DNA of 32,000 bases from Erysipelotrichaceae bacterium (GCA_963663995.1 OY760660.1:240001-272000); one strand, 5' to 3'; positions 5,365 through 23,635 are shown, numbered from the stretch's first letter. Notes: generated by a model not told the origin, from the letters alone. Numbers and translations: made by a program.

Positions 5365-5440
5365 GGAGGCTTAGCTCAGCTGGGAGAGCATCTGCCTTAC
5401 AAGCAGAGGGTCGGGGGTTCGAGCCCCTCAGCCTCCACCA
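5365..5440 (+). tRNA. tRNA-Val (anticodon TAC)
   Basis: Cloverleaf read by hand: acceptor GGAGGCT/AGCCTCC, anticodon loop CTTACAA, T-loop TTCGAGC, encoded CCA. Confidence 0.9.
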
Positions 5441-5454
5441 TTTTTTTTGAAAAA

Positions 5455-5530
5455 GCCGGCTTAGCTCAATTGGTAGAGCAACTGATTTGTAATCAGTAGG
5501 TTGTGGGTTCAAGTCCTATAGCCGGCACCA
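5455..5530 (+). tRNA. tRNA-Thr (anticodon TGT)
   Basis: Acceptor GCCGGCT/AGCCGGC, anticodon stem ACTGA/TCAGT with loop TTTGTAA, encoded CCA. Confidence 0.9.
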
Positions 5531-5556
5531 TTAAGATTACCTTACAGCCCCCAACT

Positions 5557-5641
5557 GGGGGGGTAGCGAAGTGGCTAAACGCGGTTGACTGTAACTCAAT
5601 TCTCTCCGAGTTCGGCGGTTCGAATCCGCCCCCCCCCACCA
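5557..5641 (+). tRNA. tRNA-Tyr (anticodon GTA), long variable arm
   Basis: Acceptor GGGGGGG/CCCCCCC, anticodon loop CTGTAAC, long variable arm (type II), T-arm GGCGG-TTCGAAT-CCGCC, encoded CCA. Confidence 0.88.
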
Positions 5642-5655
5642 TTCTTTAAGGTAAT

Positions 5656-5731
5656 TGGGGTATAGCCAAGCGGTAAGGCACCAGACTTTGACTCTGGCAT
5701 TTCCCTGGTTCGAATCCAGGTACCCCAGCCA
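5656..5731 (+). tRNA. tRNA-Gln (anticodon TTG)
   Basis: Acceptor TGGGGTA/TACCCCA, anticodon stem CCAGA/TCTGG with loop CTTTGAC, T-arm CCTGG-TTCGAAT-CCAGG, encoded CCA. Confidence 0.88.
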
Positions 5732-5738
5732 TAAATGT

Positions 5739-5814
5739 GACCCGTTAGCTCAGTTGGTAGAGCAACTGACTTTTAATCAGTGGGTCGAAGGTTCGAATCC
5801 TTTACGGGTCACCA
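5739..5814 (+). tRNA. tRNA-Lys (anticodon TTT)
   Basis: Acceptor GACCCGT/ACGGGTC, anticodon stem ACTGA/TCAGT with loop CTTTTAA, encoded CCA. Confidence 0.9.
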
Positions 5815-5858
5815 TTTATTTTCTTAGATTACTCATTAATAAGCGTTTAATACGTGAT

Positions 5859-5932
5859 GCGGATGTAGTTCAATGGTAGAACTTCAGCCTTCCAAGCTGA
5901 CTACGTGGGTTCGATTCCCATCATCCGCTCCA
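5859..5932 (+). tRNA. tRNA-Gly (anticodon TCC); its 3' end is the att core of the downstream islands
   Basis: Acceptor GCGGATG/CATCCGC, anticodon stem CAGC/GCTG with loop CTTCCAA, T-arm GTGGG-TTCGATT-CCCAT, encoded CCA. The last 17 nt recur four times downstream. Confidence 0.9.
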
Positions 5933-5943
5933 ATAGTCAAATT

Positions 5944-5967
5944 AGCCCTTAAATAAAGGGTTTTTTT
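5944..5967 (+). terminator. Terminator hairpin after tRNA-Gly
   Basis: CCCTT (5946-5950) pairs with AAGGG (5956-5960), followed by T7. Confidence 0.55.
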
Positions 5968-5980
5968 ATGCTTAAAAAAA

Positions 5981-6000
5981 AGTGCAACGGAAAGTGCAAC
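5981..6000 (+). repeat. Paired AGTGCAAC direct repeats (candidate arm-type recombinase sites, left arm of island 1)
   Basis: AGTGCAAC at 5981-5988 and 5993-6000. The same pair recurs at 17253-17270 near the other island end. Confidence 0.5.
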
Positions 6001-6061
6001 GCTCATATTGAAAATTAAAAGAAGAATATTTCTAATATTCTTCTTTATTTTACAAGTAATA

Positions 6062-7366
6062 TTACTCAAATGATTTTTGCATTTTCTTTTCTTTTTCTTT
6101 AAACATATGTGCATAAATGTCTTCTACCATTCTTTGTGTATTTCCAAGACTATCTGCAACATCTTTTGAATTATAACCTTCATCTATTAGCGTCGATGCA
6201 CTACTATGTCGAAAATCGTGTAATCTCATATGCTCTAAACCAGCTTCTTTTAAGTATTTTTCTTCATATCTTCTTACAGTAGTAGGACTGAGTCTGACTT
6301 GTCCCTGTCTACGTTTAGCGGTTGTAAAACTGGAGAATAATGGTAATTTACTACTATAAATACCTTTTTCTTTATAATAATTTATTAAGTTCATTATATG
6401 ATGATGAGCAATATCACCCACGTATTTTTCGCGTGTACTATTTTCGGTTTTTGTTTCTGTTATTAAATTGTTAACATTATCCCAATTATTTTTAATATCT
6501 AATATGCGTTTTTCAGGATCGTAGTCTTCAACTAAAAGAACTAAGCATTCTCCAATTCTCATTGACAGCGTATATAAAATTGAATAGATTGCTAGATCTT
6601 GGAGTTTTTGCAATTGATTAATCTTACCATTTTTATTGGTATGACACTCAATTGTTTTCATTAAATGTTTGAATTGTTCTTTATCGATAATTTGGTATTT
6701 CAGTTTTTCTTTTGTTTTAAAACTACTTTTAGTTATAGTGAATTTTTCAAAATATTTAAATGGATTAACTTCAATATAATCTTGATTTTTTGCATATGTG
6801 AAAATTGATTTGAAAAGTGTTTGGATATTTATTAAAGTGCTCTTGGATAATCCATAAGTTACTTCTTTTTGTGAACCAGCATATTTCGTGTATGTTGCAC
6901 TCTGTAAATAATCACGCCATTCTTCGATATCCTCTTTTTTAATTTTATCTATTGATTTAGTGATATTTTTATAATCTTCTAGTTTTAATCCGTGTAGTTT
7001 GTTTTTGTCAATTCCTGGTAATAAAAAATTAGGAAGAATATGTTTTAGTGCTTTTGTTGATAAGTCATAATGACTTCTTTCTTTATGCTTTTTGAAATCA
7101 ACCTTTTTGTCTAGATATTCAATAAACACTGAAGCAATCGATTTTGAACACATTGATAGAACTTGCTCAGGATTTTGTAACTGTTCTTTTAAAAGTTCTA
7201 AGGCTGTTTCTGCTTCATCTTTACCCCATTTCATGCGCCCTTTTCTTACTTTATGAGTTTTTTTATTTTCATCTTTATAGACTAAATAATAACCCCACAT
7301 TGACGAACCGTTTCTTGTGATTTGCTTTGTTTCTTCCTTTACAACTTTAGTTAACATGTGCTTCAT
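6062..7366 (-). CDS. int: Tyrosine-type site-specific integrase
   Basis: C-terminal catalytic signature: SMRIGE (box I Arg), HDFRHSSAS (H-x-x-R), and DIYAHM (Tyr nucleophile region). N-terminal arm-binding-like region WGYYLVYKDENKKTHKVRKGRMKWGKDEAE. Sits next to a tRNA. Confidence 0.9.
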   Translation of the reverse strand: MKHMLTKVVKEETKQITRNGSSMWGYYLVYKDENKKTHKVRKGRMKWGKDEAETALELLKEQLQNPEQVLSMCSKSIASVFIEYLDKKVDFKKHKERSHYDLSTKALKHILPNFLLPGIDKNKLHGLKLEDYKNITKSIDKIKKEDIEEWRDYLQSATYTKYAGSQKEVTYGLSKSTLINIQTLFKSIFTYAKNQDYIEVNPFKYFEKFTITKSSFKTKEKLKYQIIDKEQFKHLMKTIECHTNKNGKINQLQKLQDLAIYSILYTLSMRIGECLVLLVEDYDPEKRILDIKNNWDNVNNLITETKTENSTREKYVGDIAHHHIMNLINYYKEKGIYSSKLPLFSSFTTAKRRQGQVRLSPTTVRRYEEKYLKEAGLEHMRLHDFRHSSASTLIDEGYNSKDVADSLGNTQRMVEDIYAHMFKEKEKKMQKSFE

Positions 7367-7553
7367 CTTTCTTTTCCAAATCTACATCTAGACCACCAGT
7401 TTTTTCTAAAAAATCTAAGTTGATTTTTAACTCTTTGATAGCTATATCAGTTGGAATTAAAGCTCTACTATAATTTTCAAAAACATCGTAATTAATTTTT
7501 GATTGTATTTCTTTAATAATTTTTCTTGCAGAAGGTAATACAAGTACCTTTGA
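7347..7553 (-). pseudogene. Start-less 3' gene fragment upstream of int
   Basis: 69 stop-free codons (…ARKIIKEIQSKINYDVFENYSRALIPTDIAIKELKINLDFLEKTGGLDVDLEKKDEAHVN*) with no ATG/GTG/TTG start. The stop overlaps the int start. A run this long is unlikely by chance in AT-rich DNA. Confidence 0.3.
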
Positions 7554-7785
7554 CTATGTTAATAATCAAATCGTTAAGAAAACGGATGCGCTAGGAAATG
7601 AAGAACGCATTCAATATGATCGAAATAACCAAGTTATCGAAACAAAGACAGTCGATCATGTTTTAGGAACCATCGCACAAAAAACATTCACGTATGATGG
7701 AGTCGGAAATAAACTATCCGAAACAGACCTCTATGGAAATCAAACTCACTATAGCTATGATGCCAATGGCAATCTTTTAAGAAGC

Positions 7786-10700
7786 ATGAGTGATGTTTTA
7801 GATGCGAATTTAGAAAAAGCGACTGCAACAACACAATATGAATACGATGCAGCCAATCGCTTGATTGCCGAGATTGATCCTTATGGTAAACAAACGCTGA
7901 CTGAATATGATGGAATGGGTCGAATTCTAACCATCACAACAAAAGCACCTAATACTGTAGATATTTTAGAAGTCGCTTATCAATATGATGAAAATGGGAA
8001 TGTCATTGAAAAAACAGAAAGTGGGGCTGTTAGCACTTATGTTTATAATGAACTCAATGAGTTGATTGAAGAAATAACACCTACCAGTCTTCATATCTTT
8101 TATACTTATGATCGCAATCATCGTTTGATTAGCACAGCGAAAACTTCATCAGAAGTTTATAATGCAGAAGCATCTGACTTAAGAGTAACGAGTCAAAAAT
8201 ACGATTATCTTGGCCGTCTTGTTGATAGTATGGATGAATTAGGACGTCATCAATTGATTCGTTATGATGCATATGGAAATGTTAATGCAAGCATTAGTTA
8301 TGATGGGCAGTTTGTCAGAAATACATATAGCGCTAACAACCAACTTGAAATCAGCATTGATGCGCGAGGTAATAAGACTGAATATCACTATAATGAACTC
8401 AATCAACTTGTTTCAATCATTGATGATGAAGGAAATATCAGTCGATTTGTTTATGATGCACTTGGTAATATCATTCAAAGTGAAAATGCTTTAGGAGAAA
8501 TCCAAAGTTTTGAAGTTGATATGTATGGCAATATCACACGTCAAGTTGATGCATTAGGGCATGTCATCACATCATCCTACGGACCTCAATCCCTACTTAA
8601 AGAGCAAATCACCTTTGATTCTGAACAAAATGAATTACTTAGAACCATTTATACCTATGATTTACTAAATCGTTTAATCAAAGAGAAAACAATTTATACC
8701 AATCCTCTGACCAATTCTCAAGAAATCACGGTTGTGCAAAATATGTATGACATTCTTGGAGATATGGTAAAGCACGTTGATGCGCGCAATTATGAAACAA
8801 GTTACGTGTATAACTTTGCCCATCAAGTCATGCAAATCGATTATCCTAATGGTCTTAAGGTTCAAAATACCTATGATCAAGATACAAAACTACTCATAGA
8901 AACAAAGAAAATTGATACGACCTTAGTCAATAGTGATCGCATCAATCAATTTGAATACAATGCTTTTGGTGAAATCATCCAAGAGACTTATGCAAACAAC
9001 AGTTTCAAGACAAATGACTATGGTCATGCAGGTGAACTCTTAAGTGAAAGCTTCTCTAACGATGATTTAGTTTCTTCATCTGATGATTACATTAAAACTT
9101 ACCAATATGATGAAAATGGACGTTTAGTAGGCATATCTGATAATGCAAACTACAATGAGTCAACAGATACTTATGCATCACAAACACTAGAGTTAAGAAC
9201 ATACAATAGCTTTGGCGATTTGGCCTCTGTTACCACACAAAGTGGTCTTGTCACAGAATATAGTTATGATCACTTTGGTCGAAAAATCGAAGAACGTGTG
9301 AAAGATGTTTTAGTTGAAACCAGTGTAAATGGAAGTCTTGTAAGTTCAACACAAGATTTAACGACATCCTATAGTTATGATAAACTCAGTCGAGTTACTC
9401 AAATGGTTTATCCAAATGGACTAACAGAATCATCTGTTTATGATGCAAGTGGTAATATCTTATCTAAATCAAGTTCAGATAATATAACAACAAAGACTGA
9501 ATCTTATGTCTATGATGCACTCAATCATCCAATAAAAGTCATCTACGCAAATTTGGATGAAACGAATTCCATTTATAATGCTTTAGGACAACTAGTCAAA
9601 ACCATTACAACGAGTGGTGAAAGCACCATTTATACCTATGATACTAATGGCAATTTGATCAAAAAGGAAATCTTTACCTCTAATGATCAATTAGCTCAAA
9701 AAACAGAATATGTCTATGATGGCATGAATCAACTCACTCAAACAAAAGAATTAAGAGTTGTTGATAGTATTGAATCTTATGCCCTAACAACCAATACCTA
9801 TAATGTATTTGGCGATTTAGAATCTGTCCAAGATCCAAAAGGATATCTTGTTGAATATGCCTATGATGAAATGGGAAATCAAATCAAAATTACCTATGCA
9901 TCAGAAAACGAAATCAATATGACTTATACAGCCAGTGGTTTATTAAGCGAAAAGACATATTCAACTAAGAATACAGATCCTTTCAACCTCTTTACCAGCC
10001 ATGAAGTTTATACTTACCTGATTGATGGAAAACTCGCTAGCTTCAGTGATAACCCTCCAACATCCAGCAGTGAAAGTCACAAGTCAGTTGTTTACAGCTA
10101 TGAAAATGGTGTTTTAAGTCAAGTTGAAACAAAACTCAGCTCTATGAGTGGAACCCTTGAAACCATAACGAATTGCGATCGTGTATCGTACAGCTATGAT
10201 GCTTTAGGAAGAGTCACGACAATGAGTGATTTAAATGGTCATACAAGCACTCATTATGATGCACAAGGCAATATCAGTGGAGTTGAGCGTATTAATGAAA
10301 CTGTACAATTGGATTTAAACTTCAATGAAGTCAGTCGTTCAACTACAAGTAGTAGCCTTGTTCAATATACTTATGATAAATGGGGCAATCAAACAAGCAT
10401 CATCTATCCAGATGCAAGCAGTGTTACTAAGACTTATGATGTGATGAATCGTTTAACATCTGTGAGTGATGGTGTGGATGTGACAAGCTATGTTTATGAC
10501 AACCAAAATCAAACAGTTACAGAAACCCATTTAGATGGTAGTCAAAAAGTCACAAGCTACCAATTAGGTAAAACAATCAGTGTAGTCTCAAGCCATTATG
10601 ATGCATTCTATGACACACAAATAGTAGATTTCTCACAAATCTTGACCTATGATACTCAACAAAACGTCATTCATGAAGAAAGACTTCAAAATGGTGAAAC

Positions 10701-12777
10701 AACGATTATTGATAATACATACAATGATCGTGGTGAATTGACTCAAAGTCATCAAACAGAAGGACTAAGAGAGACAATCTACTCTTATCAAAGTAATATC
10801 TTTGGCAATAAGAGTCATTTAACTGAATATTATTATGATGGTGATCTCGTCTTTAGTGAATCCACCAGCATGACCTATAACCATCTCAATCAACTTGAGA
10901 CTTCGATTACATCAGGTGTGACTACAAACTACAGTTATGATGATTATGGTAACCTCATTGAAGAGAATGATGGAACCCATAGTATTACCTATACCTATGA
11001 CTTAAATAACAAGTTGATAGGTGTAGTCGATGGTTCTAGTAGCTTAAGTTTCATTTATGATGGAGCAGGTAATCGATTAAGTAAGGTTGTTGATAGTATA
11101 CAAGTTGACTATGTCAATGACATCACTGAAGACAATACCAATGTCTTAAGTTATCAAGTAGACTCAGCTACTACAAACCTTGTCTATGGCAATGAATTAC
11201 TCAGTGAAAACAGTGTTTTCTATTTAAGCGATGCTTATGGGAATATTGTTCAACATGGAAGTGAATCCTATGCTTATGATCCTTATGGATCACTTACTCA
11301 AGGAAGTATTGATAGTATTAATGAAGTCGGGTACAAAGGTGAAGTACATGATACCAGTGATTTACAATACCTAAGAGCTAGAACCTATAGTACCAAACTT
11401 CATCAGTTCCTAAGTGAAGATACCTATACAGGTCAAGCAGGATCACCACTCTCACAAAACAGATACCTCTTTGCGATGAATAATCCATTTAAGTATTCTG
11501 ATCCTAGTGGGCATTACTTTGTGGAAGAGGATGTTGTCTTAACAGGAACACAAACAGCTCAAGCGATTCAAACGTCGTATGCAAAAGCAAATCCAACCTT
11601 TGATTACGCAGTAACTACACCAGTTACAACAACAACGACCACAAACGTTGTAAGTAATACAGTTTACAATCCAGTAAATTACACTAGCCCAGTCATAACA
11701 AGTTCCGGTTCTATTTATGCACAATCACAAGCAGGACCAACCTATTCTGGTTATAACAATTATCAATTACTACATTCTTATCCAACCAATGTATCAAATA
11801 CAAAGTCAGCTACAGCCCAAAGAGATAAGAATGTTGTAGAGAAACTTATTGAATTTGAAAACGATGCTAACCATGCATCAATCGCAAAAGGAACATTGAA
11901 TGTTATTGCAGGTGTTGTTGGTGTAGGTATTGGAATCATTGCGCTAGCAGGAATCGCAGCGGCTACATTGACAGCTGCGCCAGCCATTATTTTGGCTTCT
12001 GCTGCTGTTGGTTCAATTGCTTATGGAACATCGAATACCGTTGAAGGCATTAATCAAATCAAGCTTGGAACACAAGGTAAAGGAAGTGAAAGAGCCTTTA
12101 ATCCATTACGAGATACTGTGTTTAAAGACAACGAAGGTCTATATAACGCTATTGGAATAGTCAGCACATTACTTACTTCTGGGGGTTTATCTGCGATAAG
12201 TGAAGGAGGAAATCTTGCATCTGTAGCTTCTAGTGTTATGATGAATACAACTAAACAAGTAGCTACCGGTTCTGTTTCAATAGGTATAGGAAAAGTCGCT
12301 GAAGAGGTTACAGGAAGTAAGACAATTGGCTTTGCGACAGGCTTGATAACTGCAGCTATTGCATATCCTCAGATTAGCAAGGGCATGGATAAAGCAGTTA
12401 GTGCAATTAGTGTATTTAAAGAAAAAGTTGCTAATGCGAATATTATATTTGAAAGCAACACTACAACGAGTATAGGTTTTGATAGTTTCAATGATGCTAA
12501 AAAATTCTTAGGTTCACCAGGGGTGGGTAATCAATGGCATCATATCGTGGAACAATCACAAATACAAAAGTCAGGCTTCGCAACACAATTAATCCAAAAC
12601 ACAGATAATCTTATCCCTGTCGATAAAGCTACTCATGCAAACATAAGTGGATACTATTCTTCAAAGCAAGTGTTTACAGGAGGGAAAACAGTTAGAAACT
12701 GGTTGATTGGACAAAGTTACGAAAAGCAATTTGAGTTTGGAATACAAAAACTAATAGATTTCGGGGTATTTAAATAA
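7786..12777 (+). CDS. RHS/YD-repeat polymorphic toxin, apparently 5'-truncated, with a C-terminal WHH-type HNH/EndoVII nuclease domain
   Basis: Dozens of YD repeats (YxYDxxGN/R). RHS repeat-associated core ends with LQYLRARTYSTKLHQFLSEDTY...NRYLFAMNNPFKYSDPSGH (DPSGH at 11500-11514). Then an S/T-rich linker, a Gly/Ala-rich hydrophobic module, and the terminal GNQWHHIVEQ...THANISGYY (WHH at 12535-12543). The frame is open from 7492 and YD-repeat sequence already starts near 7531, upstream of the first Met at 7786. No signal peptide or N-terminal domain. Confidence 0.85.
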   Translation: MSDVLDANLEKATATTQYEYDAANRLIAEIDPYGKQTLTEYDGMGRILTITTKAPNTVDILEVAYQYDENGNVIEKTESGAVSTYVYNELNELIEEITPTSLHIFYTYDRNHRLISTAKTSSEVYNAEASDLRVTSQKYDYLGRLVDSMDELGRHQLIRYDAYGNVNASISYDGQFVRNTYSANNQLEISIDARGNKTEYHYNELNQLVSIIDDEGNISRFVYDALGNIIQSENALGEIQSFEVDMYGNITRQVDALGHVITSSYGPQSLLKEQITFDSEQNELLRTIYTYDLLNRLIKEKTIYTNPLTNSQEITVVQNMYDILGDMVKHVDARNYETSYVYNFAHQVMQIDYPNGLKVQNTYDQDTKLLIETKKIDTTLVNSDRINQFEYNAFGEIIQETYANNSFKTNDYGHAGELLSESFSNDDLVSSSDDYIKTYQYDENGRLVGISDNANYNESTDTYASQTLELRTYNSFGDLASVTTQSGLVTEYSYDHFGRKIEERVKDVLVETSVNGSLVSSTQDLTTSYSYDKLSRVTQMVYPNGLTESSVYDASGNILSKSSSDNITTKTESYVYDALNHPIKVIYANLDETNSIYNALGQLVKTITTSGESTIYTYDTNGNLIKKEIFTSNDQLAQKTEYVYDGMNQLTQTKELRVVDSIESYALTTNTYNVFGDLESVQDPKGYLVEYAYDEMGNQIKITYASENEINMTYTASGLLSEKTYSTKNTDPFNLFTSHEVYTYLIDGKLASFSDNPPTSSSESHKSVVYSYENGVLSQVETKLSSMSGTLETITNCDRVSYSYDALGRVTTMSDLNGHTSTHYDAQGNISGVERINETVQLDLNFNEVSRSTTSSSLVQYTYDKWGNQTSIIYPDASSVTKTYDVMNRLTSVSDGVDVTSYVYDNQNQTVTETHLDGSQKVTSYQLGKTISVVSSHYDAFYDTQIVDFSQILTYDTQQNVIHEERLQNGETTIIDNTYNDRGELTQSHQTEGLRETIYSYQSNIFGNKSHLTEYYYDGDLVFSESTSMTYNHLNQLETSITSGVTTNYSYDDYGNLIEENDGTHSITYTYDLNNKLIGVVDGSSSLSFIYDGAGNRLSKVVDSIQVDYVNDITEDNTNVLSYQVDSATTNLVYGNELLSENSVFYLSDAYGNIVQHGSESYAYDPYGSLTQGSIDSINEVGYKGEVHDTSDLQYLRARTYSTKLHQFLSEDTYTGQAGSPLSQNRYLFAMNNPFKYSDPSGHYFVEEDVVLTGTQTAQAIQTSYAKANPTFDYAVTTPVTTTTTTNVVSNTVYNPVNYTSPVITSSGSIYAQSQAGPTYSGYNNYQLLHSYPTNVSNTKSATAQRDKNVVEKLIEFENDANHASIAKGTLNVIAGVVGVGIGIIALAGIAAATLTAAPAIILASAAVGSIAYGTSNTVEGINQIKLGTQGKGSERAFNPLRDTVFKDNEGLYNAIGIVSTLLTSGGLSAISEGGNLASVASSVMMNTTKQVATGSVSIGIGKVAEEVTGSKTIGFATGLITAAIAYPQISKGMDKAVSAISVFKEKVANANIIFESNTTTSIGFDSFNDAKKFLGSPGVGNQWHHIVEQSQIQKSGFATQLIQNTDNLIPVDKATHANISGYYSSKQVFTGGKTVRNWLIGQSYEKQFEFGIQKLIDFGVFK
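10745..11585 (+). repeat. Copy 1 of a 0.84-kb direct repeat (3' part of the RHS core)
   Basis: Collinear with 13415-14255 (offset 2670). I counted 4 mismatches in the first ~520 bp, with mismatches much denser towards the 3' end. Confidence 0.9.
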
Positions 12778-13136
12778 TGAAAGATATCAAAAATATAATT
12801 GACGAATACCGAAATAATGCTGTCTTACACTGGAATGCATCACGTGATGGAAATTATAAAGCTGCTAACAAAAGTTATTCGAAGTTAACCAAAATATATA
12901 AACAATTGATTCAAAGTGAGAAACTAGGTGATAATATTTTATTAAATTTACTAAATGATCAGAATTTTGCTGTTCAATTATGGGCAGCCTCACATTGTCT
13001 TGCATTAGAAAAATCAAAAGAAGTTGCAGTTCAAAAGTTAGAATTTATTTCTAAAATGAATCCAAATGAAGCACCAAGTTTTGAAGCAAGAATGGTACTG
13101 AATGAATGGCGAGAAAAAGGTAGATTGACTTTTTAA
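12777..13136 (+). CDS. Cognate immunity protein candidate for the WHH nuclease tip (DUF2019/HEAT-like helical protein)
   Basis: The start overlaps the toxin stop (TAATG). 119 aa and all-helical. The pattern RDGNYKAANKSYSKL...LLNDQNFAVQLWAASHCL...EARMVLNEWREKG resembles DUF2019-type immunity proteins as I recall them. Confidence 0.6.
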   Translation: MKDIKNIIDEYRNNAVLHWNASRDGNYKAANKSYSKLTKIYKQLIQSEKLGDNILLNLLNDQNFAVQLWAASHCLALEKSKEVAVQKLEFISKMNPNEAPSFEARMVLNEWREKGRLTF

Positions 13137-13296
13137 GTGATGAACTTTTTAGTAATTGGTGCAAATATTGCCGTTAAAATTGCACATAAGATTTTTTCAA
13201 AATCAAAAGGAGTTTGACTTGGTTGTCTGGTTAAACCTTTGAAACACAATGTGCGTCTGGAATGAATGTTTTAAAGCAATTTGAGTTAACGAAGTG

Positions 13297-13416
13297 ATGA
13301 AACTAATAAGTAAAGCAGCTGCCATTGAACTGTATATTTCAAGTTGTAAAATTATGTATGAAGTAACTTTAACAGGTGATTATAAAGCAAATAATAGGGA
13401 AGGTAAAAAATATTAA
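13297..13416 (+). pseudogene. Truncated paralogue of the immunity gene (39 codons)
   Basis: MKLISKAAAIELYISSCKIMYEVTLTGDYKANNREGKKY*. TGDYKANNR aligns with DGNYKAANK of the 12777 immunity protein. The ORF stops exactly where the RHS repeat copy 2 begins. Confidence 0.4.
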
Positions 13417-14255
13417 AGTCATCAAACAGAAGGACTCAGAGAGACAATCTATTCTTATCAAAGCAATATCTTTGGCAATAAGAGTCATTTAACTGAATAT
13501 TATTATGATGGTGATCTCGTCTTTAGTGAATCCACCAGCATGACCTATAACCATCTCAATCAACTTGAGACTTCGATTACATCAGGTGTGACTACAAACT
13601 ACAGTTATGATGATTATGGAAACCTCATTGAAGAGAATGATGGAACCCATAGTATTACCTATACCTATGACTTAAATAACAAGTTGATAGGTGTAGTCGA
13701 TGGTTCTAGTAGCTTAAGTTTCATTTATGATGGAGCAGGTAATCGATTAAGTAAGGTTGTTGATAGTATACAAGTTGACTATGTCAATGACATCACTGAA
13801 GACAATACCAATGTCTTAAGTTATCAAGTAGACTCAGCTACTACAAACCTTGTCTATGGCAATGAATTACTCAGTGAAAACAGTGTTTTCTATTTAAGCG
13901 ATGCTTATGGGAATATTGTTCAACATGGAAGTGAATCCTATGCTTATGACCCTTATGGAGCACTCACTGAAGGAAGTATTGATAGTGTTAATGAAGTCGG
14001 GTACAAAGGTGAAGTACATGATACCAGTGATTTACAATACCTAAGAGCTAGAACCTATAGTACCAAACTTCATCAATTCCTAACTGAAGATACCTATACT
14101 GGTCAAGCAGGATCACCGCTCTCACAAAACAGATACATCTTTGCATTAAACAATCCATTTAAGTATTCTGATCCTACTGGGCATTACTTTGTGGAAGAGG
14201 ATGTTGTCTTAACAGGTTCACAAACAGCTCAAGCAATTCAAAATTCATATGAAAA
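13415..14255 (+). repeat. Copy 2 of the 0.84-kb direct repeat (5' part of the orphan RHS cassette)
   Basis: See 10745-11585. A TAA at 13414-13416 immediately precedes the homologous reading frame. Confidence 0.9.
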
Positions 14256-15642
14256 GGCAACAAGCTCTACAAGTACAAATTCAGGTGCACCTTTGTATGA
14301 TGATTTAGCTCCAACTATTAGACCACCTAAGATTGATAGTGCACCACCACTACTGCCTGGACCTATTTATCTAGCATCACAAGCACTTTTATATGACGAT
14401 TTAGAATATCAAGTTGTTAAATCAAGTCCTGTATTACCTAATAATCAGTCTTATATGTTGAATTACATTAGTCCTGAAACTTTTCAACAAGTTACAGAAT
14501 ATAAACGAAGTTCTATGAGTATTCAAACTGACCCGTATAATACGTATAATGGATATGTTGATTACAAAGGGAACATGACCCGTGAACAACAGAAAATCTA
14601 TGAACAAACATTGAATCCAGCAGCTGCTTTTGATCAATGGAAGAACGAAGATGTTAATCGAAAAGCGATTTTTGATGGGATTGAAACAGTTGTAGGTGGA
14701 GTCGTTACAGCAGCAGTAGGTGTTGGAACCATATTGGGTGCAGCCACTGCAGCACCCATCATCGCAACAATTGTTGGCATCGCTGGTGTTGGTAGTTTAT
14801 TATATGGATTATCAAATGCTTTTGAAGGAATACACAAGCTTAGCTTAGGTTTAAATGGACATGGTGGAGACAGGTCATTTAATCTAATAAGAGACACGTT
14901 GTTCTTAGGAAATAGTGATTTATATCTTTTAGTAGGAGCGACAACTACTTTATTCTCAGCAAGTGGGCTTGGCGCGATTGCGGGTGGTGCAACTAGTGGA
15001 ATGAAGTTTGCTACTAGTGTACTAACACAATTAACGAAGTTTTCAGCAACTGGTGCTTTGTCCATTGGAGTAGGTTCAGTTGTTGAAGCGGCAAGTAAGA
15101 GTGAAACACTAGGTAAATTCGCAGCAATTACAACCGCTATTAAAACCTATCCACACATAAGCAAGGGTATAGATAAAGCAATAAGTGTTGTGAGTGATGT
15201 TGCATCAAATATCTCAAGTTATGTGAATGCTAATAAGGTCAATTCAAAAAATGATTTATATACAGGAGTTAAAGAAGCATCAGAATTTCTCAAGTCACAA
15301 AATGTTCCACGTGATTATAGAAAGCAGATTCTCGAATCATTTGATGTACGAACCATAAAAATGGAAACTGCTGGTGACTCAACTTATGGTATTAGATTTT
15401 ATGGTGGAAATGCTCAAGCAAAAGGTAGATACTTATTTGAAACTTTTTCAAATACGACAAATAGAAATAACTTAGCATTACCTAATCAGTTTAATACTAT
15501 GACAGGATTACAACAATTTCAGGTTAAAAGCGGAACGCAAATGATTACAGGAAATACAGCACCGCAACTACAGTATGGTTCTCAATATTTAGGAGGAGCT
15601 AAGCAATGGTACATAAGCAATTTGGAGGCATTATTAAAATGA
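13540..15642 (+). CDS. Orphan RHS C-terminal cassette: RHS core end, hydrophobic pre-toxin module and an alternative toxin tip (TNT/NADase-like?)
   Basis: RHS-homologous frame is open from 13417, with the first Met at 13540 and no RBS. DPTGH at 14170-14184. The sequence diverges from the main gene after about 14255. C-terminal ~130 aa: YGIRFYGGNAQAKGRYLFE...RNNLALP...FQVKSGTQMITGNTAPQLQYGSQYLGGAKQWY. Confidence 0.8.
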   Translation: MTYNHLNQLETSITSGVTTNYSYDDYGNLIEENDGTHSITYTYDLNNKLIGVVDGSSSLSFIYDGAGNRLSKVVDSIQVDYVNDITEDNTNVLSYQVDSATTNLVYGNELLSENSVFYLSDAYGNIVQHGSESYAYDPYGALTEGSIDSVNEVGYKGEVHDTSDLQYLRARTYSTKLHQFLTEDTYTGQAGSPLSQNRYIFALNNPFKYSDPTGHYFVEEDVVLTGSQTAQAIQNSYEKATSSTSTNSGAPLYDDLAPTIRPPKIDSAPPLLPGPIYLASQALLYDDLEYQVVKSSPVLPNNQSYMLNYISPETFQQVTEYKRSSMSIQTDPYNTYNGYVDYKGNMTREQQKIYEQTLNPAAAFDQWKNEDVNRKAIFDGIETVVGGVVTAAVGVGTILGAATAAPIIATIVGIAGVGSLLYGLSNAFEGIHKLSLGLNGHGGDRSFNLIRDTLFLGNSDLYLLVGATTTLFSASGLGAIAGGATSGMKFATSVLTQLTKFSATGALSIGVGSVVEAASKSETLGKFAAITTAIKTYPHISKGIDKAISVVSDVASNISSYVNANKVNSKNDLYTGVKEASEFLKSQNVPRDYRKQILESFDVRTIKMETAGDSTYGIRFYGGNAQAKGRYLFETFSNTTNRNNLALPNQFNTMTGLQQFQVKSGTQMITGNTAPQLQYGSQYLGGAKQWYISNLEALLK

Positions 15643-15917
15643 TAAACGAGAAAGAATTTGGAGATAAGTATTTAGAATTAATTCAAATTGTTGAAAACGA
15701 ATTAGATTTAGTAAATAAAGGTTTGAATAAGAGATCAAGTCAACAACTAAAAACTATAATAATTGATTTGAAAAAAATGAATATTATCAAGGATTTAAAT
15801 CAATTTATGCCAAGTTATCCTAGATTTATTGTAGATTCTTGGGATTTTGACGATTTGCTAGGCATAGAATTACTAAAATTCTATGAACTCTATAAAAAAA
15901 TACAAATTAATAACTAG
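15639..15917 (+). CDS. Candidate immunity protein for the orphan toxin tip
   Basis: ATG overlaps the toxin stop (ATGA at 15639-15642), with GGAGG at 15624-15628. 92 aa, small and helical. The ORF-track start at 15606 lies inside the toxin gene. Confidence 0.6.
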   Translation: MINEKEFGDKYLELIQIVENELDLVNKGLNKRSSQQLKTIIIDLKKMNIIKDLNQFMPSYPRFIVDSWDFDDLLGIELLKFYELYKKIQINN

Positions 15918-16211
15918 ACAAGTAAGTAAAGACACTTATAAATAATTTATTCTAAGTGCACACTGAACAAAAAATATGGTAATACCGATTTGTTGTCGAT
16001 ATGTTTAGAACCTCAAAAATGTCAATTTGATGTATGTTTGAAATTCTTAGAAGGAGTATTATCAAATCAACAGAAAATTGAAATCACAAGTTGAACTGTG
16101 GTGGAAAACATGAATGGTTATTGTTACCATATACATAGATTTGTTGCCTTATATAGAACTAACAAAACTATATTACTCTTAGGTAACAATATGTCTATCA
16201 AACTTTTCGAA

Positions 16212-16341
16212 CCCCTAGTCCTCCCCTAGTTTTGATATGGGAAGCTGCGGGAAGATTTGGGACGAAATGGCATGAAATGGTAGAGTTTGGGAAGCTTTGA
16301 TGTGTGTGGTTCGATTCCTGTCAAGCGAACCTGCGATTCCT
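16212..16341 (+). repeat. Cluster of short direct repeats at ~10-11 bp spacing plus a T-loop-like remnant
   Basis: CCCCTAGT x2 (16212, 16223). GGGAAG x3 (16239, 16249, 16289). GAAATGG x2 (16264, 16274). CGATTCCT x2 (16312, 16334). GGTTCGATTCC at 16308-16318. Confidence 0.6.
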
Positions 16342-16439
16342 AATTTGAATATGACTAATAAGAAATCTCGTTTAAATTCATAAAACAATCTTTTCTACAT
16401 ACATTTTAATTTTAATATTAAAATATTAGCAATAAAGAA

Positions 16440-16461
16440 ATCGTAACAAAATCGTAACAAA
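16440..16461 (+). repeat. Tandem 11-bp repeat ATCGTAACAAA x2
   Basis: Perfect tandem copies at 16440-16450 and 16451-16461, followed by AAATAAAGAAAATAAAGAAA. Confidence 0.7.
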
Positions 16462-16722
16462 ATCTTATGAAAATAAAGAAAATAAAGAAAAAAAGCCCAA
16501 AAAAGAGGCTAAAAACGAATGATTTTGAAAGAAAAACAATAGAAATAAGGAAAATGGAGAATCCCTCTGAGGACGTGTTGAAAAGGAATTTGTATAGTTT
16601 TTTACATATTTGATTTTTTGATAAACAATATTTATTCTCGTACCTTATCAAGTTCATTATTTAAAAACCGAATTATTTGTCATTACAATAAAGTTATATG
16701 GTACAATTTCATAAAATAGAAG

Positions 16723-17223
16723 ATGAGAAATTGGTTAACAGATAAAATACCAGAAGAAGGATATGAATACAAAGGCTGTTCAGATATTCGAAATATTTTC
16801 GATGAGTGTATGTATGATTATTCAGAATTTAATGGCAAAATTTGTGATATATGTGAAACAAATATAGGGTTTATTTCACATCGTTTTTTTCATCCAATGC
16901 ATATATTAAGTGTACATTCATGTCATAGTTGTGCACAAAAGATTTTGGGTGATTCAAAAATACTTATAGAAAATGAAAAAGAGCAAAATAGAATATATGA
17001 TTTAAAAGTTAAATTTTTAAAACTTGATGGACAAGAAAAACCTAATGGAAATATTGTGATTAACTATGAGGGTAAGATAATAACCATTATGAAAAGCAAA
17101 TATAGTAATGGATATGGAGTAGTTTACAATAATAATTTTATTTGGAAATACTCTGGTAAAACTATTAAAAATATAGAAGTTGCAAAATTAGTTGCATTTA
17201 AGAAATTTATAATTTATGAGTAA
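16723..17223 (+). CDS. Cys/His-rich hypothetical protein (possible zinc-binding)
   Basis: 166 aa with CDICE (C-x2-C) and CHSC (C-x2-C) pairs. No family recognised. Last gene of island 1. Confidence 0.4.
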   Translation: MRNWLTDKIPEEGYEYKGCSDIRNIFDECMYDYSEFNGKICDICETNIGFISHRFFHPMHILSVHSCHSCAQKILGDSKILIENEKEQNRIYDLKVKFLKLDGQEKPNGNIVINYEGKIITIMKSKYSNGYGVVYNNNFIWKYSGKTIKNIEVAKLVAFKKFIIYE

Positions 17224-17252
17224 TTCTGAAAGATTATTTAGTGTTTTAAAAA

Positions 17253-17270
17253 AGTGCAACAAAGTGCAAC
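17253..17270 (+). repeat. Paired AGTGCAAC direct repeats (right arm of island 1)
   Basis: AGTGCAAC at 17253-17260 and 17263-17270, about 105 bp before the att copy. Matches the pair at 5981-6000. Confidence 0.5.
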
Positions 17271-17373
17271 ACCAAACCCTTTCTTTAGTTTCTTTTATTT
17301 GTTTTTATTTCATAAAGTGTCTTAAAAATTACCTTATTTTTAATAAAAAATGTTATTTGTGGTTGGTGTAGTA

Positions 17374-17390
17374 TCCCATCATCCGCTCCA
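17374..17390 (+). repeat. att core copy 2 (17/17 identical to the tRNA-Gly 3' end)
   Basis: TCCCATCATCCGCTCCA, followed by the hairpin AAGCCC-ATAAAA-GGGCTT plus a T-run (17401-17423). Confidence 0.9.
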
Positions 17391-17474
17391 TATGACATTT
17401 AAGCCCATAAAAGGGCTTTTTTTGTTGTAAAATCGAGTAAAACTATATAAAATTCTATAAAATTTAAATCTATA

Positions 17475-17502
17475 TGACCCAGTTGGGTCATATCTGGGTC
17501 AC
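17475..17502. repeat. CTGGGTCA motifs, left arm of islet 2
   Basis: TGACCCAG (inverted, 17475-17482), TTGGGTCA (17483-17490), CTGGGTCAC (17494-17502). Confidence 0.6.
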
Positions 17503-17686
17503 AGAGATAACTCAAAATCATATTTTATCTAACATTTTTATATTATATTAGTGAAATATGATTAAATATTAACTTGTCTTTACAATGTTGAGACTATTAA
17601 TTAACAATAGATTCATTAAGTAAAATTTTATAGGAATGATGCTATAATTTAATTGTTATTACAAATAGTTGTTTTGGGGGTATTCA

Positions 17687-18406
17687 ATGTTGAAATTAGA
17701 TAGAAAATACATGCTTATTTATGTGTTTGTACTATTTTACTCTATATTTCCTAAGTTTATATTTAATAATACAATCGAATTTACATATACTTTCATGATA
17801 TTTATTACGCTTTTAATAATAGGCACTTTTATTTTTATGTACATTGATCTTCTCAAAAATAAAGATGTACTGAAAAATATAAAAAATGTAAGCACAATTG
17901 ATAAAGTATATTCTTTAATTAAGATAATTGTTATAAACTTGTTTGTTTTTATAACAGCTTTCTTGTTGTATTTTATCTCAGGCAATGTAATCAGACTTAT
18001 TACTGAGCTTATGAAAAATAATAGTGTTAATATATCTGCAATCTTTGATTTTCATCCAAGATTTAATATATTTGTTATTGTGATCGCTGGTATTTTTGGT
18101 TCACTATATCCTGTTTTCGTTATTAGTTTATATCTGATTTTTATTATTCTATATTTGTCAAAAGAAAGTAAATATAATTGGTACAATTCTCATTTCATGC
18201 TTTTCGTTTTAGTTTCGATGACTTTGTATTTTATATACACAATTTGGGAATTTTTTATATCAATTAATTCAACTTTTAGTATATTTCGTTTAGATTATTT
18301 TCTTTACTCTTTAGTGATAACAGTTTTTCCATATTTACTTTTTGTTAAACGAAAGAAATTAATGAATCTTATTTTCAAATACACATGTAATATTAACTAT
18401 TTCTAA
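17687..18406 (+). CDS. Polytopic membrane protein, unknown function
   Basis: About 7 hydrophobic segments and no recognisable motif. The ORF-track start at 17669 is a TTG; the first ATG is at 17687. Confidence 0.5.
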   Translation: MLKLDRKYMLIYVFVLFYSIFPKFIFNNTIEFTYTFMIFITLLIIGTFIFMYIDLLKNKDVLKNIKNVSTIDKVYSLIKIIVINLFVFITAFLLYFISGNVIRLITELMKNNSVNISAIFDFHPRFNIFVIVIAGIFGSLYPVFVISLYLIFIILYLSKESKYNWYNSHFMLFVLVSMTLYFIYTIWEFFISINSTFSIFRLDYFLYSLVITVFPYLLFVKRKKLMNLIFKYTCNINYF

Positions 18407-18525
18407 AATTTAATATCATTATATTTTTCTTATCAAGTTCAAACTATATCACTAGCTGATGATGATTGTATTTATAATAATAGAAATTAGTTTTCATTAA
18501 AGAAAATTAAAAAGGGGGATTAATT

Positions 18526-18987
18526 ATGAAAATAGGTATTAAAAAAACAGTTTATACATGCGCTTTATTTTCAGTTGGATTATTTATACTCAATTTTTAT
18601 GTTTCTCTGTACATGTATATGGAAGAGGCTGCATACAAAATTGAAGTAAACAAAGTAGTGCAACTACATTACCTTGCGATGATCATATGTTTTATTTTTG
18701 GAATTCTTATTGAATCAAACCGTATCATTGCGTTTTTACAGAAAAAAATTCAATTTAAATTGACTGCAGTATTCATAATCGGTTTGATAATGTTTTCAAT
18801 CGGATTAATTTCAGCCACAACTTATATAAGTTGGTTTGGATTAGAGTTTTGGCAACCATTTCCTAGAGGAAGAATAGGTATTAACATGTTTGTTGGAATA
18901 TTAACTAAAACAATTAGTATTCAATCCATATTAAGTGTTGTTGGAGGTACTTTGGTTGTTAAAGGATTATTTCCAGACAACTATTAA
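18526..18987 (+). CDS. Polytopic membrane protein, unknown function
   Basis: 153 aa with about 4 TM segments. Strong RBS AAGGGGGA 7 nt upstream. Confidence 0.55.
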   Translation: MKIGIKKTVYTCALFSVGLFILNFYVSLYMYMEEAAYKIEVNKVVQLHYLAMIICFIFGILIESNRIIAFLQKKIQFKLTAVFIIGLIMFSIGLISATTYISWFGLEFWQPFPRGRIGINMFVGILTKTISIQSILSVVGGTLVVKGLFPDNY

Positions 18988-19085
18988 TGTAATAAGATAT
19001 TAAGTTTTTTAATACAATGGAAAAACATGAGTGGATATTGTTACCATATGTATAGATTATAATTATGTTTATCACAAATTATTTA

Positions 19086-19105
19086 CTGGGTCACAGCTGG
19101 GTCAC
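19086..19105 (+). repeat. CTGGGTCAC x2, right arm of islet 2
   Basis: Copies at 19086-19094 and 19097-19105 (11-bp period). This begins a ~145-bp block conserved with 22275-22416 and 24285-24427. Confidence 0.7.
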
Positions 19106-19211
19106 GAAATACCAAATATCTTAATAAATCTTATTAATTTATGTATAATCATGTTATAGAATATTCAGTTTTATTGCGTTATATTTGGTTTTACAAGTGG
19201 TAATTGGTAAG

Positions 19212-19228
19212 TCCAATCATCCGCTCCA
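19212..19228 (+). repeat. att core copy 3 (16/17)
   Basis: TCCAATCATCCGCTCCA, followed by the hairpin AAGCCT-ATAAAA-AGGCTT plus a T-run (19239-19261). Confidence 0.85.
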
Positions 19229-19409
19229 TAAGAGATTTAAGCCTATAAAAAGGCTTTTTTTGTTATAAAATTTAACAAAACTGCATAAAAATTCATGAAA
19301 CATATATCTTTATGAGCCAGATACACATCGTATATTTTTTATGTAACTACATGAACTATGATTATGATTATTTTTTTGAAACACTGTTCTTTAAAAGTAT
19401 CCGTTGGAG

Positions 19410-20648
19410 TTAATTGCTATACATCCAATTCAAAAGGGTTATTTTCTCTTTATAATAAATGATGGCTACTTTGTACTTGCTTCGATTTTCATAATATGTA
19501 ATCAGTCGATCTAGTACGAATTCATAGTTTTCAAAATTCCGTGTATCTTTAGTTATTGAATGAAGTTGAAGCAGTTTAGATTCAAGTTTAGTTTCATTGT
19601 TGCTATATTCACACTGTATAATCTCCATTTCGAGTTTGTACATTGGATCAGTAAAACTGAATATTTTATTTTGATAGAGTTGATTAGCTTCTTGTGTCTG
19701 ACTTAATTGATAAAGACATGAACACTTAATAAAGATTCCATTTTCTGATAATTCTTGTTCAAGTTCTATTTGTTTTAAATATTCTAATGAGTCTTTATAT
19801 TCTTTATTTAGAAATGAGAACCAAGCTAGATTGTAGAGGATGACAATCTCTGTTTCTGTATCTAGAGTTGTCGAAAGAATCCGTTTGTACATTTTTTGTG
19901 ATGTTCTAAAATGTCCTAACTTTGAATTTATAGAAGCACTATGGATTTGCATATGTGTTAGTCGTTTTAGATTGCGTGTTTTAAGAAAATAATCCTCTGC
20001 AATTTCACTCAAAGACAAAGCTTTATTTAGTTTTCCATAATACGTATAAATAAACGATGCATGGTAATGAATTAATCCAGCGCTACTTTCTCTAGTTTCA
20101 TATTGAAGGGCACGATCAATCGTATTAACCGCTTCTTGAATTTGATTGTTTTTAAGAAGTTCAATCGCTTTGTAATCATAGTATAGCTGTTTGAGTTCAA
20201 TCTCAAAAAGATGGACATTTTTAATCACATATTGATATGAATCAAGATCATAATGAAGACCTAATATATGCAGGATATAAAAGATTGTATGATATTGATT
20301 CATAACTTCTGAGTAGAAGATATACTGATTGGCTAATCTTACTTGATGAATCAATCTTTCAATTTCTATTTCATTATCGAAAATGATAGATTCTAATAGA
20401 TCATTCAAATCTTCATTGAGTTTATCTTCAATATAAAGCACTGATTCTAAGTTAATATTTAAATATCGTGCTAAAGTATGAATGTTTTCTTGATTGAGAT
20501 CTCGTAATCCAATTTCGTATTTAGAAAGACTTTGATAGCTGTAACTTGTTAGTTCTGATAACTCTCTAAGCGTAAGATTTTTCTGCTTACGAGCATCAGA
20601 AAGAAGTTTTAAGATATTGATGTTTTGAAAAGTTAGTTTGTCGCCCAT
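19410..20648 (-). CDS. RNPP/Rgg-like transcriptional regulator (N-terminal XRE-type HTH and C-terminal TPR-like helical repeats)
   Basis: HTH: KQKNLTLRELSELTSYSYQSLSKYEIGLRDLNQENIHTLARYLNI. This is followed by ~350 aa of helical-repeat sequence (e.g. AGLIHYHASFIYTYYGKLNKALSLSEIAEDYF, ILYNLAWFSFLNKEYKDSLEYL). The ORF-track start at 20714 is a TTG; the ATG at 20648 (MGDKLTF) is conserved in the paralogue. Confidence 0.7.
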   Translation of the reverse strand: MGDKLTFQNINILKLLSDARKQKNLTLRELSELTSYSYQSLSKYEIGLRDLNQENIHTLARYLNINLESVLYIEDKLNEDLNDLLESIIFDNEIEIERLIHQVRLANQYIFYSEVMNQYHTIFYILHILGLHYDLDSYQYVIKNVHLFEIELKQLYYDYKAIELLKNNQIQEAVNTIDRALQYETRESSAGLIHYHASFIYTYYGKLNKALSLSEIAEDYFLKTRNLKRLTHMQIHSASINSKLGHFRTSQKMYKRILSTTLDTETEIVILYNLAWFSFLNKEYKDSLEYLKQIELEQELSENGIFIKCSCLYQLSQTQEANQLYQNKIFSFTDPMYKLEMEIIQCEYSNNETKLESKLLQLHSITKDTRNFENYEFVLDRLITYYENRSKYKVAIIYYKEKITLLNWMYSN

Positions 20649-20753
20649 AATTAGTATAATTATACAATTCAAATTTGAAATTGTCCGAAATTTGTAGACA
20701 AGATCGTTTCTCAAATTAGATATAATTGATATATAAGAAAGGTGGGTGGCTGA

Positions 20754-20813
20754 ATGATTGAACTCTACTACTTAATAATCGATTTGTTTGATATGGTATT
20801 GCCTAAGTTTTAA
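20754..20813 (+). CDS. Unannotated 19-codon hydrophobic peptide ORF (candidate SHP-like signalling pro-peptide)
   Basis: AAAGGTGGGTGG RBS 4 nt upstream of the ATG. Encodes MIELYYLIIDLFDMVLPKF. Divergent from the regulator across a 105-bp intergenic region. The paralogue at 22856-22915 differs at 5 nt: 4 synonymous and 1 Leu-to-Ile. Confidence 0.55.
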   Translation: MIELYYLIIDLFDMVLPKF

Positions 20814-20865
20814 GACTAATAAGAATTTATTAAAATGTCATGATTATGACAATGAAAGGGAGTTT

Positions 20866-21948: not shown

Positions 21949-22195
21949 GTGGAAAATAATCGTTTGTACTATTTGGCTAATAGTATTTATATTTGATTAT
22001 GGTTCTGTGTTAAACGGAAAAAAACCTACTTTTATTGTTCCTGTTGAATTTCAGTTTAATCTTGATGAGGCCAAATATCTGTATATAGGATTGGGGTATG
22101 GGGTTGTCTATAAAGAATATCCTCCTGAAGTCATAATTGTTCAGGCTGACTTCTATATTTTATGTTTTAAGATACAGTCAATAAATTCTTACTGA
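21929..22195 (+). CDS. Small membrane-anchored protein (possible immunity/partner of the amidase-domain protein)
   Basis: 88 aa with one N-terminal TM (IIVCTIWLIVFIFDYG). Overlaps the upstream gene by 20 nt. Confidence 0.4.
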   Translation: MVFLRDKWKIIVCTIWLIVFIFDYGSVLNGKKPTFIVPVEFQFNLDEAKYLYIGLGYGVVYKEYPPEVIIVQADFYILCFKIQSINSY

Positions 22196-23624: not shown

Positions 23625-23635
23625 TTCGCTAAATT

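Follow-up and report, generated by a model that had tools for sequence, protein, structure and literature searches.

Organization of the rhs locus

We analyzed a 32,000-nt stretch of the genome of an Erysipelotrichaceae bacterium (GCA_963663995.1, OY760660.1:240001-272000; referred to as the window and numbered from its first letter), which carries an rhs/wapA-type polymorphic-toxin locus. The genes of this locus are arranged in the order tyrosine integrase, truncated rhs gene ending in a first toxin tip (CT1), predicted immunity gene imm1, a 39-codon stump of an imm1-type gene, an orphan frame (253 core codons followed by a second tip, CT2), and predicted immunity gene imm2. The coordinates are collected in Table 1, and the comparison loci and homologous proteins are denoted by L and P numbers, respectively. 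The 3′ end of the RHS core is present in both rhs frames, and the relation between these two copies, together with the state of the gene that carries the first of them, is the subject of this analysis.

An ungapped self-comparison of the window at an offset of 2670 aligned copy A with copy B over 841 nt with 26 mismatches and no indels (96.9% identity), and a repeat finder returned the same pair (10745-11585 and 13415-14255). Both junctions are sharp. On the left, identity begins at AAAGTCATCAAACAG, with homology switching on at 10745/13415, and on the right it switches off after 11585/14255. Beyond these limits identity falls to ∼25–35%, which is the background for the composition of the window. 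Chance cannot account for an 841-nt repeat that is 97% identical. The offset equals 3 × 890 codons, and the two copies are in the same orientation and frame, so that a crossover between them yields an in-frame fusion.

The RHS repeat-associated core domain (TIGR03696) was detected at full length in copy A (2.1e-15) and in copy B (7.3e-16), and the core ends with NNPFKYSDP(S/T)GH in both. The demarcating PxxxxDPxG(L/H) motif is present as NNPFKYSDPSGH at 11500-11514 and with the ending DPTGH at 14170-14184. The right limit of the repeat lies 71 nt (24 aa) past the DPSGH/DPTGH codons, and the tips diverge after these 24 conserved residues. An earlier annotation of this DNA (the original prediction) had described two collinear copies that end ∼25 aa past the DPxGH motif, and the gapless alignment bears this out. 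A 0.84-kb repeat of this type is what a spare (orphan) Rhs toxin tip usually leaves when it is placed behind another tip.

The second copy belongs to an orphan cassette

A TAA codon at 13414-13416 directly precedes the homologous frame of the second copy, and the matching codon in the upstream copy is CAA. As had been proposed, the second copy has no start codon of its own and leads into a different toxin and immunity pair. The frame follows an rhs gene together with the immunity gene of the latter, runs for 41 startless codons after the TAA, and contains only 253 core codons before the motif. These features support the identification of the second copy as an orphan rhs-CT cassette, in which the core 3′ end is followed by a tip unlike the first and by an immunity gene of the cassette's own.

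Homologues of imm1 are found directly 3′ of homologues of the CT1 toxin (tox1) in six unrelated loci (L014, with 70% identity, L022, L033, L028, L018 and L027), and the imm1 product has a weak match to DUF2019 that is below the Pfam cutoff. Homologues of imm2 are found immediately 3′ of homologues of the CT2 toxin (tox2) in L084 (77% identity) and L085 (43% identity), and GGAGG precedes both candidate imm2 starts. On the basis of this conserved synteny, imm1 and imm2 are predicted to be the cognate immunity genes of their respective tips.

The sequence just upstream of the orphan frame records how the cassette was joined. By tblastn, a 40-codon open reading frame (ORF) at this position matches the N-terminal part of the L028/L033 imm1-family gene with 64% identity. 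BLASTP of the 40-aa product vs. imm1 gave no match, and the relation is visible only through the L028/L033 homologue. The stump shares its frame with the orphan rhs and is separated from it solely by the TAA created at the junction. The 5′ junction of the orphan therefore interrupts a second imm1-family gene, at codon ∼39, and the left end of the cassette is an illegitimate junction inside an immunity gene. A junction at this position is consistent with the displacement model, whereby older tip/immunity blocks come to lie behind newly inserted ones.

Divergence between the two core copies is concentrated at the edges of the repeat

Mismatches between the copies were found at 10767, 10782, 10794 and 10950, and the other 22 were found between 11280 and 11582. 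With 4/535 vs. 22/306 mismatches, the two parts of the repeat differ highly significantly (Fisher p = 4e-7; p < 0.0002 by permutation of the maximum chi-square). The original prediction had counted by eye 4 differences in the first ∼520 bp and dense mismatches in the last ∼300 bp, and had called for a precise alignment to locate the breakpoint of identity. The counts agree, the rise is placed at 11280, and divergence is not uniform along the repeat. When only synonymous codons were considered, 4/178 vs. 11/102 were mismatched (p = 0.004). The contrast thus persists at synonymous codons, so that constraint at the protein level does not explain the uneven divergence.

The same prediction had read an identity gradient as the mark of past recombination. 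The uneven divergence stands, but a monotonic slope does not, since the profile consists of a central block with both edges diverged. Divergence along the repeat is U-shaped, with 6% at the 5′ edge, 0.2% in the middle and 7.2% in the 3′ part. Three of the four early mismatches are within the first 50 nt of the repeat, and all three are synonymous. The 5′ edge differs significantly from the middle (p = 0.003) and is indistinguishable from the 3′ edge (p = 1.0). Between the edges, a single mismatch was observed in 485 nt, and a perfect run of 329 nt, as found in this block, has a probability of ∼4e-5 if divergence were uniform. Judged from the alignment, the uneven divergence is a mark left by earlier recombination, either between the copies or into them, and the near-identical block between edges with ∼6–7% divergence fits an internal gene-conversion tract.

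Alternatively, the near-identical block could date from the acquisition of the cassette. An incoming tip would then have carried the last ∼300 nt of a foreign core, with a crossover at ∼11280, and the 5′ part of the repeat would be duplicated resident sequence. The rise in mismatches at 11280 is abrupt and affects synonymous and non-synonymous positions alike, and tips of this family are swapped together with the core end, as such an origin would have it. Nevertheless, it leaves unexplained why three synonymous mismatches are found within the first 50 nt, at a density like that of the 3′ edge, and it requires a separate duplication to yield two copies of the 5′ part. We consider this origin unlikely when compared to gene conversion.

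An assembly artefact, or a plain tandem duplication with clock-like divergence and without recombination, has nothing in its favor beyond the existence of the repeat. The copies differ at 26 positions and run into unrelated sequence on both sides, their divergence is strongly non-uniform, and the left junction interrupts an unrelated gene. The distribution of mismatches and the anatomy of the junction effectively rule out this explanation, to which we give next to no credence.

In two of the related loci (L028, 12794-16253, and L027, 7867-15702) the repeat copies are identical centrally and diverged at the edges, as in the window. The core repeats of L014 and L083 show uniform divergence instead. 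Conversion between tandem cassettes may be common.

The upstream rhs gene lacks its 5′ part

The upstream rhs gene matches RHS_repeat of Pfam over 12 stretches (1.4e-85) and TIGR01643 (2.1e-55), and the Pfam search returned no domain other than RHS_repeat. Its frame opens 165 bp from the start codon of the divergent tyrosine integrase. There is no ATG, GTG or TTG in the 85 YD-like codons between ∼7531 and the ATG at 7786, and no Shine-Dalgarno motif precedes this ATG or the next in-frame starts. More than 100 homologues of the protein are ∼3000 aa long, and the fragment aligns from residue ∼1180–1324 of 3051-aa homologues. In the latter, DUF6531 is located at ∼765–840 (∼700–1430 across the homologues), and LysM and the signal peptide are also upstream of the alignment start. 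No match to the N-terminal ∼770 aa of the rhs homologues was found in the 32-kb window. The startless frame with YD-like codons and the internal start of the alignment indicate that the gene is truncated at its 5′ end. By these sequence comparisons, the apparent 'main' gene is itself devoid of a start, a signal peptide and the DUF6531/LysM region.

This result bears on the proposal that recombination would delete 2670 bp and join the main RHS body to the orphan tip. The geometry of the deletion and the in-frame fusion hold, but a functional main body does not, since the upstream gene is 5′-truncated.

The closest homologue of the upstream rhs is P0002 (38% identity). P0002 was considered as a second 'short' Rhs and was rejected, because it is merely cut by the end of its contig. 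The homologue search, which apparently returns only proteins of ∼0.6–1.75 times the query length (neither the main ORF nor the orphan was retrieved when the other served as the query), yielded no protein with more than 38% identity to the upstream rhs. The proteins of the locus are singletons in the public protein collection.

TABLE 1. Features of the rhs locus, its direct repeat and the surrounding tRNA-Gly island.
Feature	Position	Strand	Description
tRNA-Gly(tcc)	5859..5932	+	Last of a six-tRNA cluster; ARAGORN, Rfam
AAGTGCAAC tandem pair	5980..6000	+	Just inside the left island end
Tyrosine integrase	6062..7366	-	434 aa, apparently intact; Pfam Phage_integrase 6.6e-16 and SAM-like domain; PHROG 1 9e-40
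5′-truncated rhs/wapA-type gene	7531..12777	+	YD frame open from ∼7531; first start ATG 7786 (1663-aa ORF); stop 12775-12777
Repeat copy A	10745..11585	+	Last 253 RHS core codons, DPSGH (11500-11514) and 24 more codons
Near-identical block	10795..11279 (partner 13465-13949)	+	1 mismatch/485 nt; perfect run 10951-11279
CT1 tip	11515..12774	+	24 conserved residues, Thr/Ser-rich linker, ∼190-aa hydrophobic Gly/Ala-rich domain, ∼105-aa toxin domain
Shared hydrophobic domain	11860-12414 and 14640-15219		Between RHS core and toxin domain in both tips
imm1	12777..13136	+	119 aa, predicted cognate immunity of CT1; start overlaps rhs stop (TAATG)
imm1-family stump	13294..13416	+	40-codon ORF, remnant of ∼39 codons, ends in TAA before the orphan frame
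Repeat copy B	13415..14255	+	Core 3′ end of orphan cassette, DPTGH at 14170-14184
Orphan rhs-CT2 frame	13417..15642	+	741 codons, no 5′ start; first in-frame ATG 13540
imm2	15606..15917	+	Predicted cognate immunity of CT2; ATG 15606 or ATG 15639 (ATGA overlap with orphan stop)
Right attachment-site core, island I1	17374..17390	+	Exact tRNA-Gly 3′ 17 nt; AAGTGCAAC pair upstream at 17252-17270

The two tips share an internal domain and differ in their toxin domains

The toxin domain of CT1 (∼12460-12774) contains an invariant W-H-H-I-V-E and forms the C-termini of large polymorphic toxins in several phyla. None of its 86 homologues was assigned to a Pfam family (0/86). The domain itself gave no Pfam match even at E ≤ 10, including PF14414 (HNH/EndoVII 'WHH' nuclease), and a sequence/profile search of the PDB gave no match. 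When the CT1 toxin profile was compared with a WHH-containing protein by hhalign, the WHH motifs aligned with a non-significant probability of 0.9%. The link of CT1 to WHH/HNH nucleases is only motif-deep.

The CT1 domain pattern (LGSPGxGNQWHHIVEQ...N...H..IS.YYSS...VR.WL..QSF..Q..FG) was observed in Firmicutes, Negativicutes, Bacteroidales, myxobacteria, Actinobacteria and Elusimicrobia. The domain occurs in L014, L022, L025, L027, L037, L039, L040, L041, L045, L052, L055 and L078, and it travels with a DUF2019-like immunity protein.

The C-terminal ∼130 aa of CT2 form a putative TNT/ART-like toxin domain, and its final 123 aa align with the part of P0136 that holds the TNT domain (33% identity). 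The CT2 toxin family has 338 representatives, and TNT Pfam matches were found in 2/40 members. The CT2 domain gave no direct Pfam match, including the TNT family PF14021, and its only PDB hit was a weak one to 6xtd (E 0.25). These matches weakly link the CT2 toxin family to TNT/ART NAD-using toxins.

The linkers of CT1 and CT2 are both Ser/Thr/Pro-rich and differ from each other. The tips have in common a ∼190-aa domain with a ∼45-aa very hydrophobic Gly/Ala-rich stretch, with 33% identity over the alignment. This domain, which belongs to no Pfam family, is also present in P0130, before a colicin-D-type tip, and in P0142, and may be a membrane-entry module. The second tip had been described as different from the first. 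This holds for the last 105–130 aa, but the tips are not wholly unrelated, as the ∼190-aa domain is common to both.

Comparison with known orphan arrays

The orphan-cassette mechanism invoked in the original prediction is established for Rhs (PMC3967940) and CdiA (PMC3150448), and also for Gram-positive WapA (PMC12704120). In Salmonella Typhimurium LT2, recombination of rhs-main with rhs-CT-orphan (STM0291/STM0292) within a shared 522-bp segment (95% identity) has been demonstrated (Koskiniemi et al., 2014, PMC3967940). As in LT2, the window contains a startless orphan tip behind an rhs gene and the corresponding immunity gene, a common core stretch (841 nt, 96.9% identity here) and an immunity gene of the orphan's own, and recombination in the common stretch joins the upstream gene to the orphan tip. 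In contrast, the LT2 upstream gene is full length and delivered by the type VI secretion system, and recombinants were observed, whereas the upstream gene of the window is 5′-truncated and no recombinant was seen here. The setting also differs, with a low-GC Gram-positive-type genome and a locus placed in a tRNA island.

A Gram-positive counterpart is provided by the WapA 'truncated duplications' of Streptococcus suis, which are likewise downstream truncated copies, each with a different tip and immunity gene (PMC12704120). These copies lack the signal peptide and the complete Rhs domain, and they did not mediate competition (PMC12704120, 2025). In S. suis the orphans are preceded by a full-length 3158-aa WapA (DNRLRE, LysM, DUF6531 and two Rhs domains), but no such gene is present in the window.

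Among the related loci, L028 (Eubacteriaceae metagenome-assembled genome, CAZOOZ010000013.1) has the same tox1-type tip and imm1-type gene. It contains two orphan cassettes that repeat the core 3′ end with 97–98% identity and with mismatches concentrated at the repeat edges. Unlike the window, L028 has an intact main gene (2959 aa, with a signal peptide and DUF6531), and its repeats are shorter (341–437 nt). Related Firmicute loci (L014, L083, L028 and L027) commonly have tandem rhs cassettes in which the end of the core is repeated. Another long orphan-like fragment from a related organism was observed in L081 (10001-13104). This stand-alone rhs fragment encodes 887 aa, has a colicin-D-type tip and is followed by a 146-aa gene; it adjoins a lysine-biosynthesis operon, and there is no full-length rhs nearby.

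The CdiA-CT/CdiI orphan arrays (Poole et al., 2011, PMC3150448) resemble the window in that they are tandem promoter-less tip/immunity cassettes that begin in a conserved motif region, and in that the orphan immunity genes retain their own start and Shine-Dalgarno motif. They differ in the delivery family (two-partner secretion, VENN motif) and in their Gram-negative hosts.

The repeat of the window supports active switching between a main gene and an orphan in several respects. Recombination would swap CT1 for CT2 on a functional, deliverable Rhs and would thereby change the weapon of the strain. The repeat is direct and in frame, the orphan has no start, and both tips and both immunity genes are intact. 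With 329 nt of perfect identity, compared with 522 bp at 95% in Salmonella, where switching is proven with a shorter and less similar repeat (PMC3967940), our analysis supports the view that the copies would be long and similar enough for RecA-type recombination. However, the upstream partner lacks a start for 85 YD codons, a Shine-Dalgarno motif, a signal peptide and the DUF6531/LysM region; truncated WapA copies are non-functional for competition in S. suis (PMC12704120); and a simple deletion would remove imm1 too. Active switching at this locus is thus quite improbable.

The locus is the cargo of a tRNA-Gly island

The 3′ 17 nt of the tRNA-Gly gene (5916-5932, TCCCATCATCCGCTCCA) form the left attachment-site core of an island. 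Exact copies of this 17-mer are present at 17374, 22400 and 24411, a further copy at 19212 has a single mismatch, and a terminator-like hairpin follows each copy. The catalytic R...HxxR...Y residues of the tyrosine integrase are visible in its translation. An integrase gene beside a tRNA gene and 17-bp repeats of the tRNA-Gly 3′ end at both ends of the element are the features of a tRNA-integrating island, and they mark the rhs locus as cargo carried by an island of 11.5 kb (5933-17390). In the 32 kb, AAGTGCAAC occurs exactly just four times (5980, 5992, 17252 and 17262), with one pair per island end. By their sequence and position, these pairs are candidate arm-type sites of the integrase. 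No relative of the integrase was found among viral contigs, and the only integrase with weak similarity to it in 80 Rhs loci is that of L001.

A tyrosine recombinase beside immunity genes without a deliverable toxin, in horizontally acquired DNA, is also a feature of rAID-1 of Bacteroidales (bioRxiv 10.1101/471110). In the rAID-1 clusters, the XerD-like recombinase is co-directional, the intergenic sequences are repeated in an integron-like manner, and the immunity genes are numerous (10.1101/471110). The repeat search of the window revealed no repeated intergenic motif. Membership in rAID-1 was rejected, because the integrase is divergent from the cargo, the island is a classical tRNA-flanked one, and only two immunity genes and a stump are present.

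Four tandem islands are inserted at the tRNA-Gly gene (5916-24427), and the first is the sole bearer of an integrase. The right flanks of the last three attachment-site copies and the left flanks of islands 2–4 are mutually similar, so that islands 2–4 look like decayed relatives of one element family. Directly upstream of the array, six tRNA genes (Val-tac, Thr-tgt, Tyr-gta, Gln-ttg, Lys-ttt and Gly-tcc; 5365-5932) account for a local GC peak. The last gene of the first island is a 166-aa Cys-rich ORF (16723-17223, CDICETN...HSCHSCAQK) with no match in Pfam, NCBIfam or PHROGs. In the neighboring islands, the DNA upstream of ORFs 20788-21948 and 22890-23624 (20509-20946 vs. 22611-23048) is 91% identical. 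The first 53 aa of the products (386 aa, Amidase_6/CHAP-like, and 244 aa, respectively) are 81% identical and signal-peptide-like, and the proteins are then unrelated. By sequence, the two ORFs appear to combine the same promoter and leader with different secreted cargo.

The rhs cassettes, having lost their delivery part, could be kept as intracellular toxin-antitoxin (addiction) modules that would stabilize the island. The long toxin frames are intact despite this loss, the immunity genes are translationally coupled to the toxin frames, and internal promoters and toxin-antitoxin behavior of rhs main and orphan are known in Salmonella (PMC7043789). Set against this, a search close to the 5′ ends of the frames revealed no internal start preceded by a ribosome-binding site, and the promoter/terminator scan was at background level. 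From this analysis, such a role seems very unlikely.

A similarly doubtful idea is that the 11.5-kb element transports rhs tip/immunity cassettes without a delivery part from one Gram-positive host to another, i.e., as a mobile 'tip library' and immunity island. If so, truncation beside the integrase would be a design feature rather than decay. Nothing but homologous recombination with a full-length rhs/wapA already resident in the host would activate the cassettes, or, alternatively, their sole use to the recipient would be acquired immunity or the action of an addiction module.

Discussion

We favor the reading that this region is the relic of an rhs/wapA-type polymorphic-toxin array, carried as cargo by the 11.5-kb tRNA-Gly island, in which gene conversion has acted between the cores and whose products are probably not exported, and we assign it a probability of roughly 0.65. 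The proposed history is as follows: (i) the 841-nt repeat would be the core homology that every orphan cassette keeps; (ii) the boundary at 13414/13415 would be an illegitimate junction that arose when one tip/immunity block was placed before another; (iii) later gene conversion between the core copies, as the distribution of mismatches suggests, would have erased divergence over ∼485 central nt, with the edges remaining ∼6–7% diverged; (iv) by the geometry of the repeat, a crossover within it would remove 2670 bp, with CT1, imm1 and the stump, and CT2 would then continue the upstream frame in phase, in a predicted fusion of 1728 codons counted from the ATG at 7786; and (v) neither the present upstream product nor the CT2 fusion is likely to be exported, given the domain content and the experiments in S. 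suis. The last step follows from the upstream gene being without a start, a signal peptide and the DUF6531/N-terminal region. Without an export region, the two immunity genes are most likely the parts of the locus that are still useful to the cell and its present-day value.

Three observations weigh against this reading. First, neither of the long frames (1748 and 741 codons) is interrupted by a stop or a frameshift despite the AT-rich genome, which points to a very recent truncation or to continued selection on the toxin-coding parts. Second, a full-length rhs elsewhere in the 1.95-Mb genome, beyond the 32-kb window in which none is present, could be a recombination partner of these cassettes. 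Third, the case for gene conversion comes from one sequence pair, and a mosaic incoming cassette could look alike.

The locus is an ordinary and probably disabled example of a known arrangement. The understanding of Rhs tip exchange is unchanged, as the mechanism has already been demonstrated experimentally, and its setting in an island, the truncation of the upstream gene and the block that resembles a conversion tract are worthwhile annotations that introduce no new principle. The locus provides a clean, quantifiable example of a main/orphan repeat from a poorly sampled low-GC lineage, in which the closest homologue is only 38% identical. For the annotation of such loci, it illustrates that (i) an rhs ORF can look like a 'main' gene by its length and yet be an orphan; (ii) the divergence profile of the common core can reveal gene conversion between cassettes; and (iii) gene stumps allow cassette junctions to be dated and ordered.

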